DNA of 64,000 nt, taken from the sequence record OP292222.1; one strand, given 5' to 3'. Below are positions 41,402 through 42,638 of this stretch, piece after piece. Numbering within the stretch: the first letter of the stretch is position 1; each line of letters begins with the position of its first letter. The position numbers and the translations under genes were made by a program. Source of the stretch: Escherichia phage Esco_phi_B-01. The notes under the pieces were generated by a model. It made no database searches. It was not told where the DNA came from and was given only the letters and a program-made list of their open reading frames with translations.

Positions 41402-41856
41402 TGAAAACCGAAGATTTTGCTCAAGGTCTATACGTTGCTGCAAAATTCTCTGAATTGACTTTAGATGCGCTGGAAAATCTTCAGCGCACTTTAAAGGTTC
41501 CTAATCCAGTTCCTCGTGAAAAATTCCATTCTACAATCTGCTATTCAAGAGTCAACGTTCCATACACCGTTGCATCCGGAAGTTTTGAAGTTGCTTCTAC
41601 AGGACATCTTGAAGTGTGGAAACATGGCGATTCTCCCGTCTTGGTACTGGTTCTCGATTCAGAGTATCTTAAATGCCGCCATCAGTATGCTCGTACCTTA
41701 GGTGCTACGCACGATTTCGATGATTATACCCCTCATATCACATTGTCTTATAATGTAGGACCTCTTACCTTTAGTGGAGATGTCCAGATTCCTGTCGTTT
41801 TAGATAGAGAATATAAAGAACCCTTGAAGCTCGACTGGGCCGAGGATTTAAAATGA
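41401..41856 (+). CDS. 57B: 2H phosphoesterase, gene 57B / Acb1-like
   Basis: 151 aa (T4 152); two H-x-T/S motifs (HSTICYS, HITLSYN); position after 57A. Confidence 0.75.
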
Positions 41857-42062
41857 AAACCTACAGCGAATTCTTAACAGAAGCAATGGAATCCGCCTCT
41901 TCGGTGGCAATAGAGGTTTCTTGTACTCCTGAAGAATTTAAAGAAAGCCTGAAAGGTATAAATTGGCTTTCAGGAGAGTTATCTAATGGGGTTGCCTACT
42001 TCTTTGGTCCTCAATCGGATATAGATAGCTGGGTCTCTGAAAATTCTTCATGGCTAAAATAA
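41853..42062 (+). CDS. Internal (capsid-targeted) protein, CTS-bearing
   Basis: 69 aa; N-terminal [11 protein letters not shown] like T4 internal-protein capsid targeting sequence with L-x-E motif. Confidence 0.6.
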
Positions 42063-42080
42063 TTTAAACTAAGGAACAAA

Positions 42081-42335
42081 ATGAAAACTTACTCTGAATT
42101 TTCTGAAAAATCTCTAACTGAATCCTCACATGGTATGGAAGTAAAACTTGGTACGGCTTTGGCTGAAGCCGAACGTTTGTTCGCGCGTATTAAAGAACTT
42201 GCTGATTCTGTTGACCCGGGTTCCTTTAAAGGTGACCAGACTAAAGTTAAAGCTCTTTTGGCTCTGTGTTCTGATGCCGGTGAAATTGCTAAGAATGGCT
42301 CTAAGATGAAGAAACGTCTGGAAGACCTAAAATAA
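42081..42335 (+). CDS. Internal (capsid-targeted) protein, CTS-bearing
   Basis: 84 aa; N-terminal MKTYSEFSEKSLTE. Confidence 0.6.
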   Translation: MKTYSEFSEKSLTESSHGMEVKLGTALAEAERLFARIKELADSVDPGSFKGDQTKVKALLALCSDAGEIAKNGSKMKKRLEDLK

Positions 42336-42347
42336 TTTAAAAAAGAT

Positions 42348-42395
42348 GTTTACAAGGTCTATAGGCATGATACTATAGACCTATCAAAACAAACT
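42348..42395 (+). promoter_or_regulatory. PeSL-type early promoter
   Basis: GTTTAC, 17 bp, TACTAT, AGACCTATCAAAAC; palindrome ggtctatag/ctatagacc spans the -10. Confidence 0.55.
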
Positions 42396-42413
42396 AACCA
42401 CATGGAACCCAAA

Positions 42414-42638
42414 ATGAAAACTTATCAAGAATTTATTACAGAAGCTAAAAAGCACGAAGACCAGCTGCCGGTTGTTACAAAAACCTTTGATGGTACACTG
42501 GCCGATTTTAAAAAAATCCCTAGTGATAAACTTGCTAAATTGACCGGAAGCATCAGCGAAAAAGATGGCAAGGTTACGTTTTCTGCCCAAGGCACCGCCA
42601 ATCTTAAAAAACTTTTGAAAGCCGCTGGTGCAGAATAA
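42414..42638 (+). CDS. Internal (capsid-targeted) protein, CTS-bearing
   Basis: 74 aa from MKTYQEFITEA (track ORF starts 12 nt earlier). Confidence 0.6.
   Translation: MKTYQEFITEAKKHEDQLPVVTKTFDGTLADFKKIPSDKLAKLTGSISEKDGKVTFSAQGTANLKKLLKAAGAE

Follow-up and report, generated by a model that had tools for sequence, protein, structure and literature searches.

The three small genes between 57B and trna.4 of this phage constitute a polymorphic internal-protein (Ip) locus of the ipI type known from T4-like coliphages. On the reading that we favour, to which we assign a probability of about 80% as a whole, the array comprises three independent cassettes (an unnamed ORF1 family, Ip5 and Ip8) whose products would be packaged into the head by means of a capsid targeting sequence (CTS) and injected into the host in an anti-defence role. 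The presence of internal proteins here is already known and, except for ORF1, which is acidic and unnamed, ordinary. The DNA analysed, hereafter the window, is a stretch of 64,000 nucleotides from Escherichia phage Esco_phi_B-01 (OP292222.1); it is that of a Dhakavirus, a JS98-like T4-type phage.

Organization of the internal-protein locus

The array occupies the position that ipI has in T4, and the gene order gp1-57A-57B-[ip]-trna.4-trna.3-trna.2 is common to the window and T4, with the difference that T4 has one gene at 57B-trna.4 and this phage has three. The interval is one of two polymorphic ip loci, the other being e-denV. The polymorphic Ip locus was described in 1994 (Repoila et al., EMBO J 13:4181; GenBank Z35082). 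The locus and its borders are composed as follows:

41401-41856, plus strand: gene 57B, Acb1 (anti-CBASS phosphodiesterase family), which bounds the ip locus on the left
41853-42062, plus strand: ORF1, 69 aa, unnamed CTS-bearing family, phrog_23867
42081-42335, plus strand: ORF2, 84 aa, Ip5 by homology to the named protein
42340-42387, plus strand: early-promoter block of T4 type (TTTACA, 16 nt, TACTAT) with an internal inverted repeat
42414-42638, plus strand: ORF3, 74 aa, Ip8 by homology to the named protein
42640-42687, plus strand: second early-promoter block, at the end of the array and ahead of trna.4
42713-42898: trna.4, after the array and the second early-promoter block

We observe that even close Dhakavirus relatives, with 92-97% DNA identity in the listed cases, differ in what this locus holds: ORF1-Ip5-Ip8 in the window is replaced in others by ORF1-Ip8-Ip9, ORF1-Ip8-Ip9-Ip7, ORF1 with a 97-aa protein, or Ip8-Ip9. 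ORF2 shares 86-87% identity with the Ip5 proteins of RB15 and further Tequatroviruses, its mature part reaching 93%, and its DNA is about 80% identical to the copies of T2/T6 and Tequatroviruses. A JS98-like (Dhakavirus-type) backbone was seen to carry Ip5 in only one other record, PQ561418, an unclassified partial contig with 94% DNA identity. ORF3 is 85% identical to Ip8 of RB15, and the PHROGs to which Ip5 and Ip8 belong carry the annotation of internal head or virion protein. The longest frame for ORF3 opens at 42402 (MEPKMKTY...); we take the start to be 42414, because all homologues start at MKTY.

In T4 and RB15, as in the window, this early-promoter block precedes or flanks ip genes; five copies of it lie within 40-56 kb of the window. 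Ip5 has an AAGGA ribosome-binding site and no promoter of its own, and the ATG of ORF1 overlaps the stop codon of 57B (ATGA), so that ORF1 is translationally coupled to 57B. No TATAAATA late promoter was found before the three array ORFs, the nearest upstream on the plus strand being at 38419; the ip genes of T4 likewise have no TATAAATA within 120 nt. Two one-mismatch TATAAATA boxes, at 41812 and 41957, were judged unconvincing.

A shared leader on bodies unrelated in sequence

A preliminary description of this DNA had pointed to three consecutive ORFs starting MKTY(S/Q)EF, and these are indeed present on the plus strand at 41853, 42081 and 42414, with MKTYSEF in ORF1 and ORF2 and MKTYQEF in ORF3. 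In the six frames of the window MKTYxEF opens five ORFs and no others. The remaining two had also been singled out for similar N-termini, the first with a late promoter and the second as ipIII-like, and both descriptions hold:

45239-45862, plus strand: 207-aa protein with the leader MKTYNEFLNE, candidate internal protein
54022-54618, plus strand: IPIII orthologue, 198 aa, with the leader MKTYKEFITE, between lysozyme e and denV

The 207-aa protein is basic (pI 9.6) and has an Ala/Pro/Lys-rich linker; its ORF is preceded by a terminator-like hairpin (45170-45201) and by a perfect TATAAATA late-promoter box (45203-45210), 29 nt upstream. Its family occurs in at least six genera and is always annotated as ‘hypothetical’. 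The body of the 54022 protein is 87.5% identical to IPIII, and this phage lacks IPII, also beside 54022.

All three array proteins (3/3) begin with a leader of the type MKT(Y/F)xEF(I/L)xE, and Y4 and F7 are present in each of them as well as in the 45239 and 54022 proteins. The supposed signature of T4 internal-protein leaders is borne out by alignment, the leaders lining up with the capsid targeting sequences of T4 IPI, IPII and IPIII in the aromatic residue at position 4, Phe at position 7 and the L/I-x-E site. The genetics of T4 IPIII indicates that leader positions 4 and 7 govern targeting, and positions 8 and 10 processing (PMC9026906). Glu at position 10, in keeping with the signature given for the whole array, is present in ORF1 (L8-T9-E10, then Ala) and in Ip8 (MKTYQEFITE, with I8-T9-E10, then Ala), but not in Ip5, in which position 10 is Lys and the L-x-E site lies at L12-T13-E14, followed by Ser, within the longer leader MKTYSEFSEKSLTE. 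Among the compared Ip5 sequences (L/I)-T-E followed by SSHGMEVK is kept and the remaining leader varies; RB15 and PQ561418 both retain this predicted cleavage site. The predicted cut after E10 would leave a mature ORF1 of 59 aa that is acidic (pI 4.1, 5% K), the cut after E14 a basic Ip5 of 70 aa (pI 8.8, 14% K), and the cut after E10 a basic, lysine-rich Ip8 of 64 aa (pI 9.5, 19% K).

Beyond residue 14, BLASTP detects no significant similarity among the leader-bearing proteins. Body-versus-body BLASTP across all Ips yielded no cross-family similarity, and the bodies of ORF1, Ip5 and Ip8 showed none to IPI, IPII or IPIII. Pfam offered no family for any of the three array ORFs, sequence searches of the PDB with Ip5 and Ip8 returned noise only (E > 0.1), and a Foldseek search of the PDB with the ORF1 model returned nothing at E < 0.1. 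The earlier view that the bodies are unrelated is upheld only by sequence (BLASTP): the AlphaFold models of ORF1 and Ip8 (pLDDT 80-81) have their secondary-structure elements in the same order, although the cross-hits are weak (TM 0.41-0.45, E about 0.13), and Ip6 too gives weak cross-hits by fold.

Probable packaging, injection and role of the cargo

How would such proteins reach the host cell? Alongside gp20, gp23, gp24 and gp67, the window encodes the following two proteins of the prohead, the first being the enzyme expected to remove the leaders:

11091-11726, minus strand: gp21 prohead protease (Peptidase_S77, E 1e-103), about 90% identical to T4 gp21 (PDB 5JBL)
10245-11060, minus strand: gp22 prohead scaffolding core protein (T4_CASP), forming the core that takes up CTS-bearing proteins

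The products of the array, which share a head-targeting leader, probably end up inside the capsid and enter the host along with the DNA. In the mechanism that we propose, the CTS, M-K-T-Y-x-E-F-(L/I)-x-E, would recruit each protein into the gp22 scaffolding core during prohead assembly, and gp21 would clip the leader after L/I-x-E, the cut falling behind E14 in Ip5 and behind E10 in the other two. The mature proteins of 59, 70 and 64 residues (ORF1, Ip5 and Ip8, respectively) would remain in the head with the DNA, be co-injected with it and act in the cell before any phage gene expression. Each of them would most probably inhibit one variant of a first-response defence, for example a modification-dependent (type IV, GmrSD-like) restriction enzyme. 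Phages would gain, lose and exchange cassettes through recombination at the leader and at the flanking promoter blocks, both of which are conserved. For ORF1, Ip5 and Ip8 we infer each of these steps, namely packaging, the cleavage sites, injection and an anti-defence target. Our literature search found no virion proteomics for Dhakavirus, Ip5, Ip8 or ORF1; the virion proteome of one Jiaodavirus lists internal virion proteins only beside the lysozyme gene.

The preliminary description had envisaged a diversifying set of injected effectors, possibly anti-restriction; this interpretation is supported and agrees with the view already published for the T4 Ips (PMC12373910). In T4, different GmrSD type IV restriction enzymes are inhibited, one each, by Ip1, Ip2 and Ip3 (Silas et al. 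2025, PMC12373910). IPIII is required for infecting ECOR17 (Srikant et al. 2022, PMC9391042), and leader-less T4 IPIII supplied from a host plasmid rescues plating of the deletion mutant on restrictive strains (PMC9391042). An anti-restriction role for ORF1, Ip5 and Ip8, and the target it would imply, are put forward by pure analogy, because their bodies have neither similarity to IPI, IPII or IPIII nor a Pfam or PDB match. The DNA of Dhakavirus is probably modified with arabinosylated 5-hydroxycytosine and not glucosyl-hmC, as suggested by synteny (PMC13326640); since this modification is probably unlike that of T4, the restriction enzymes that matter here may not be the ones examined with T4.

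The nature of ORF1 and alternative explanations

One challenge to the proposed reading concerns ORF1, which might not be an internal protein at all but a cytoplasmic one, co-expressed with Acb1 (57B) in an anti-defence operon, its leader being a by-product of recombination. The acidic character of ORF1, unlike that of the basic T4 Ips, the ATGA coupling to 57B/acb1 and the lack of a promoter of its own all speak for such a role, as does the damaged leader of the Merlin homologue, in which a one-residue deletion has produced MK-FTDF. Some deposited annotations, moreover, leave ORF1 uncalled (the original JS98 and JS10 records and the RefSeq tables of IME08 and JS98), and in no deposited record examined is it named an internal protein. 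We nevertheless consider this possibility unlikely. The leader, including L/I/V-x-E-A, is intact in 8/9 members of the ORF1 family, and the leader together with E-A-M-E is kept across four genera, while dN/dS of about 0.06-0.09 indicates strong purifying selection. The family is always found in the ip locus, and in phage CF1 the gene is flanked by two other CTS genes and is not next to 57B. The mature pI ranges across the family from 4.1 to 6.8. Ip5 and Ip8 have a basic, lysine-rich mature form and ORF1 does not; RB15 Ip9 and VR7 Ip6, both near neutral, are not basic either, which makes basic character a tendency and not a firm rule.

The predicted fold of ORF1 also argues against a purely cytoplasmic protein. 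Among named proteins its best fold match is Ip6 (T6 / vB_EcoM_VR7), with a Foldseek E of 3e-3 and TM of 0.70; hhalign gives a probability of 78%, a GPxxxI(D/E)xW segment is common to both, and both are found at the same locus. The differences are that identity is only about 22-28%, partly within the leader, and that Ip6 is near neutral (pI 7.8) whereas the ORF1 of this phage is strongly acidic. When 5.8 billion proteins were searched with a profile of the ORF1 alignment, only the small ORF1 family itself (10 clusters) came up, and Ip6 did not.

Another possibility is that the packaged proteins are mainly of structural or physico-chemical importance, as counter-ions aiding DNA condensation and ejection, and not specific anti-defence effectors. 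Mature Ip5 and Ip8 are small and basic, with 14-19% lysine, like T4 IPI-III, and the lysines of T4 internal proteins, which are classically basic, contact DNA phosphates (PMC3012670). Such a role, however, leaves unexplained the unrelated bodies, the presence/absence polymorphism in close Dhakaviruses and the acidic ORF1, and all three T4 Ips have specific restriction-enzyme targets (PMC12373910); we regard it as quite improbable. Counter-ion and anti-defence roles are not mutually exclusive.

Finally, the notion that the N-termini are alike by chance or as a low-complexity artefact and that the ORFs are not genes, which could appeal to their shortness (69-84 aa) and to the annotations omitting ORF1, is rejected as having a negligible probability on the strength of the shuffles and dN/dS: the DNA pattern ATGAARACNTAYNNNGARTTY has 5 matches in the window and 0 in each of 100 dinucleotide-preserving shuffles, the ORF1 family evolves under the constraint given above, the models reach the stated pLDDT, and homologues of ORF1, Ip5 and Ip8 are present in 28, 496 and 107 phage genome records, respectively.

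Implications

The ip locus is a textbook hotspot of phage counter-defence, in which a common delivery tag is combined with interchangeable cargo. Since 2025 all three T4 cargoes have type IV targets, and many other Ips, Ip5 and Ip8 among them, are orphans. The window adds nothing new in kind; it provides a compact test set under one tag: two of the named Ips, both orphans, the acidic member that has no name, and a larger protein expressed late. The targets of these cargoes would tell whether the tag is reserved for anti-restriction proteins or serves a wider range of effectors.

A bolder set of propositions, doubtful when taken jointly, is that ORF1 stands for a class of injected effector not recognised before, acidic and delivered by a CTS, with a target other than the GmrSD enzymes that the T4 Ips block, that the late-expressed 45239 family is a further uncounted internal protein, and that ORF1, Ip6 and Ip8 share one beta-alpha-beta-beta-alpha fold. 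If this were true, ORF1 could act, for example, by nucleic-acid mimicry or in partnership with the coupled Acb1; with a single fold, the ‘unrelated’ Ips would be fast-diverging descendants of one ancestor and not independent captures.

Comparison with known systems

Phage P1 presents an analogy from the literature: its Dar (defence against restriction) proteins are reported to be packed in the head and injected, and to block restriction (PMC12810830). By description this system belongs to an unrelated phage without the CTS/gp21 system and employs large proteins against type I restriction. Ip5 and Ip8 of RB15, T2 and T6 differ from those described here in their setting: the present pair resides in a Dhakavirus backbone, with ORF1 adjacent and without Ip9 or Ip7.

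T4 IPI (IPI/IPI*, gene ipI) has the same position, the same kind of leader, the same early-promoter block upstream and a similarly small mature protein, and its long leader, cut well past residue 10, resembles that of Ip5. The mature parts are without sequence similarity, and IPI* has a known target (the GmrSD of CT596) and a solved structure, in contrast to the array proteins. With T4 IPII and IPIII the array proteins are unrelated in sequence, the 54022 protein alone being an orthologue, of IPIII. They would nonetheless follow the same delivery logic of CTS leader, packaging and injection, and the same hotspot idea of several unrelated inhibitors per phage.

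The array and its genomic setting

Three small ORFs with the leader of T4-type internal proteins (Ips), an N-terminal capsid targeting sequence of MKTYxEF type, follow one another directly behind gene 57B:

41401-41856, plus strand: gene 57B, Pfam Acb1 anti-CBASS family (E 9e-59), labelled 'RNA ligase' in RefSeq relatives
41853-42062, plus strand: ORF1, 69 aa
42081-42335, plus strand: ORF2, 84 aa
42402/42414-42638, plus strand: ORF3, 78/74 aa, starting MKTYQEFITEA

A six-frame scan of the 64-kb window returned five MKTY-type starts in all, namely these three and those at 45239 (207 aa) and 54022 (198 aa). 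At the level of DNA, the degenerate pattern ATGAARACNTAYNNNGARTTY picks out the same five sites and none in 100 dinucleotide-preserving shuffles, which confirms the run of three leader-bearing ORFs put forward in the preliminary description and excludes a chance origin of the shared leaders. Because homologues of the third ORF all begin at MKTY, 42414 is likely its true start. An in-frame ATG lies four codons 5' of this MKTY (42402-42413, MEPK-MKTY), and RB15 ip8 has one likewise (METK-MKTY); with translation from that codon the leader would no longer be N-terminal, and this conserved ATG may perhaps be just part of the ribosome-binding region.

The segment shares 94-97% identity with the Dhakavirus genomes EcWhh-1, IME281, UP19 and IME08 (JS98-like T4-type coliphages), with the plus-strand order 4, 2, 3, 1 (dNMP kinase), 57A, 57B, three ORFs, trna.4, trna.3, trna.2 and three tRNAs. 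Since T4 carries ipI, alone, in the same 57B-trna.4 interval, the array represents an ipI-type locus, one of the two that Repoila et al. (GenBank Z35082), as relayed in PMC12373910 and PMC9026906, called highly polymorphic in 1994 and described as coding internal proteins known by their conserved leader. The 57B stop codon overlaps the ORF1 start (ATGA), so that 57B, a known anti-defence gene, makes up one unit with the array. The tRNA genes number just three (Met, Asn, Arg; 44149-44381, plus strand), against eight, plus two small RNAs, in T4; an ORF of 158-161 aa (phrog_2290, function unknown) sits just 5' of them.

Identity of the array proteins

Sequence identity assigns ORF2 to Ip5 and ORF3 to Ip8, the two array members with names dating from 1994. 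Aligned end to end with Ip5 from RB15 and from further Tequatroviruses (wV7, RB51, PP01), ORF2 shows 86-87% identity, rising to 93% when only the mature part is compared; it falls in phrog_3499 ('internal head protein') and matches some 496 phage records, and its closest GenBank copy is 94% identical. ORF3 (phrog_8765, 'internal virion protein') shares 85% identity with RB15 Ip8 and 96% with the IME281 and IME08 copies, and public data include a protein identical to it. For the unnamed ORF1 (phrog_23867, unknown function) there are 28 phage records, and a set of 5.8 billion proteins yields no more than 10 clusters. ORF1 occurs in Dhakavirus, Moonvirus (CF1, Merlin), Winklervirus (Gravdalen) and phage EcS1, within the 57B-trna.4 interval at every locus inspected. 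Some deposited annotations leave it uncalled. Identical or near-identical copies of both ORF1 and Ip8 are present in GenBank. With dN/dS of about 0.09 against JS98 and about 0.06 against Gravdalen, and with 28 invariant columns, ORF1 is, as judged from its conservation, a real gene.

Predicted leader processing

In IPIII mutants, targeting is governed by residues 4 and 7 and processing by residues 8 and 10, and gp21 cleaves C-terminal to L/I-x-E (PMC9026906). T4 IPII and IPIII start MKTYQEFIAE and IPI starts MKTFKEFTSTTTPVSTITE, each followed by A. Alignment with these N-termini places ORF1 (Y4, F7, L8, E10, then A) and Ip8 (Y4, F7, I8, E10, then A) with the short leader type. The Ip5 leader, which resembles the long type of IPI, combines Y4 and F7 with S8 and K10, and its first L-x-E is L12-T13-E14, then SSHG; (L/I)-T-E with SSHGMEVK directly behind it is retained in both RB15 and PQ561418, whose leaders are otherwise variable. 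The machinery that recognises the leader is encoded in the window too, namely gp23, gp24, gp20 and gp67 together with:

10245-11060: gp22 scaffold
11091-11726, minus strand: gp21 protease, about 90% identical to T4 gp21 (PDB 5JBL)

From leader and machinery together we infer that the array proteins are cleaved and packaged.

Predicted mature proteins

After the predicted gp21 cuts, mature Ip5 (70 aa, pI 8.8, lysine 14%) and Ip8 (64 aa, pI 9.5, lysine 19%) are basic, comparable to mature T4 IPI, IPII and IPIII (pI 9.0-9.7). Mature ORF1 (59 aa) has a pI of 4.1 and 5% lysine, and its entire family is net negative (pI 4.1-6.8). This acidity is the sole feature at odds with the classical Ip picture, and non-basic named Ips exist too (Ip9, pI 6.8; Ip6, pI 7.8).

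The bodies had been described as unrelated, and BLASTP indeed found no similarity among those of ORF1, Ip5 and Ip8 or to IPI-III; the three array proteins have neither a Pfam family nor a solved relative. AlphaFold models of ORF1 (41853-42059, pLDDT 80) and Ip8 (42414-42635, pLDDT 81) agree in how their elements are ordered, with a leader helix and then beta-alpha-beta-beta-alpha. Its own family set aside, the named viral protein that ORF1 matches best in fold is Ip6 from VR7 (E 3e-3, TM 0.70; hhalign probability 78%), with a GPxxxI(D/E)xW segment in common, while fold cross-matches of Ip8 with ORF1 or Ip6 are weak (TM 0.41-0.45). It is possible, going by these models, that some Ips unrelated in sequence have a common origin and a shared fold.

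Cassette polymorphism

The content between 57B and trna.4 varies among closely related phages.

Genes between 57B and trna.4
This window (Dhakavirus): ORF1-Ip5-Ip8
PQ561418 contig (unclassified, JS98-like backbone): ORF1-Ip5
IME08, IME281 (Dhakavirus): ORF1-Ip8-Ip9
WG01 (Dhakavirus): ORF1-Ip8-Ip9-Ip7
JS98 (Dhakavirus): ORF1 and a different 97-aa leader-bearing protein
AnYang (Dhakavirus): Ip8-Ip9
CF1 (Moonvirus): 106 aa-ORF1-Ip7, both neighbours of ORF1 leader-bearing
Merlin (Moonvirus): ORF1-Ip8
Gravdalen (Winklervirus): ORF1 only
RB15 (Tequatrovirus): Ip5-Ip9-Ip7-Ip8
T4 (Tequatrovirus): IPI
VR7 (Gaprivervirus): Ip9, two others, Ip6

Identity with IME281 stops exactly at the ORF1 end (42068) and restarts at the block before Ip8 (42327), so Ip5 was inserted and Ip9 lost. 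The DNA of the Ip5 cassette shares no more than about 80% identity with the copies in T2, T6 and RB15, and the unclassified contig PQ561418 is the one other record with Ip5 in a JS98-like backbone. The 3' end of Ip5 (EDLK, stop, AAAATAATTT; 42320-42350) is near-identical to that of T4 57B (DDLK, stop, AAAATAATTT), with the same promoter block next; this shared end is a plausible recombination joint for cassette insertion.

Other leader-bearing genes and expression

Two further genes carry the leader:

45239-45862, plus strand: 207-aa protein, basic (pI 9.6), with an Ala/Pro/Lys-rich linker and array-type leader
54022-54618, plus strand: IPIII orthologue, 198 aa, body 87.5% identical, between lysozyme e and denV

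Both had been pointed out before, the first with a late promoter and the second as ipIII-like, and both descriptions hold. The second ip locus (e-denV) carries IPIII as its single cassette; the window has no IPII gene, and 54619-54699 after IPIII holds a promoter block only, then denV (54700-55116). Upstream of the 207-aa gene lie a hairpin resembling a terminator and a perfect late promoter (45170-45210). Its family (phrog_2280, 143 phage records) is 'hypothetical' or without annotation in all 40 listed. Among six aligned homologues, from Dhakavirus, Mosigvirus, Kanagawavirus, Karamvirus, Winklervirus and Marfavirus, body identity falls to 37%; the late-promoter box and a second L/I/V-x-E site, around residue 15, are found in all six, and M-x-x-(Y/F)-x-(E/D)-(F/I)-(L/I)-x-E in five, the leader of CHI14 being shorter. 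The 207-aa protein is likely an internal protein that has so far gone uncounted. Its upstream module, a GC-rich hairpin with a T-run and then directly TATAAATA, is duplicated (44547-44588 and 45170-45210, plus strand, 623 nt apart; hairpins of 32 nt, 94% identical), the other copy preceding a predicted 184-aa membrane protein (44615-45169, phrog_2143, unknown function).

Conserved blocks of 48 nt, each a T4-type early promoter (TTTACA, 16-17 nt, TACTAT) with its -10 region inside an inverted repeat, frame the cassettes and number five within 40-56 kb:

42340, 42640, 45914, 51172 and 54637, plus strand: early-promoter block

Four of the five lie directly 3' of a leader-bearing gene (Ip5, Ip8, the 207-aa gene, IPIII), and the same block precedes ipI, ip5, ip9, ip7 and ip8 in T4 and RB15. 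Ip8 is served by its own early promoter; Ip5 starts 18 nt after ORF1, the ribosome-binding sites being AAGGA and GAGG, respectively. None of the three array genes has its own TATAAATA late-promoter box, and T4 ipI, ipII and ipIII likewise have none within 120 nt. The nearest upstream plus-strand late promoter is at 38419, and late synthesis would presumably proceed by read-through from upstream late promoters.

Proposed role

What could be the function of such an array? The leader would draw each precursor into the gp22 core of the prohead under assembly, where gp21 would then cut it off; the mature protein would stay with the DNA, enter the cell alongside it and work before phage transcription. 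By analogy with T4, each array protein likely inhibits one specific first-response defence.

Possibly, ORF1 instead partners Acb1 in the cytoplasm and its leader is vestigial; weighing against this are the conservation of that leader, the position of ORF1 between other Ips in CF1 and its resemblance to Ip6. A purely structural role of Ips as counter-ions would suit the basic Ip5 and Ip8 but does not fit the polymorphism of the locus or the acidic ORF1.

The suggestion that these are injected effectors, possibly anti-restriction, is supported for ORF1, Ip5 and Ip8 by analogy and agrees with published work. T4 IPI* blocks GmrSD of CT596 (PMC3012670), infection of ECOR17 requires IPIII, which also works when supplied leader-less in the host (PMC9391042), and Ip1, Ip2 and Ip3 each act against a different GmrSD variant without cross-protection (PMC12373910). 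Comparative genomics suggests an arabinosyl-5-hydroxycytosine pathway in Dhakaviruses, not glucosyl-hmC (PMC13326640), so the restriction enzymes relevant here may not be the ones known from work on T4. The array exemplifies the T-even ip locus, which has long been known; mildly new are the unnamed acidic ORF1 family, the ORF1-Ip5-Ip8 combination and, beyond the array, the 207-aa family.
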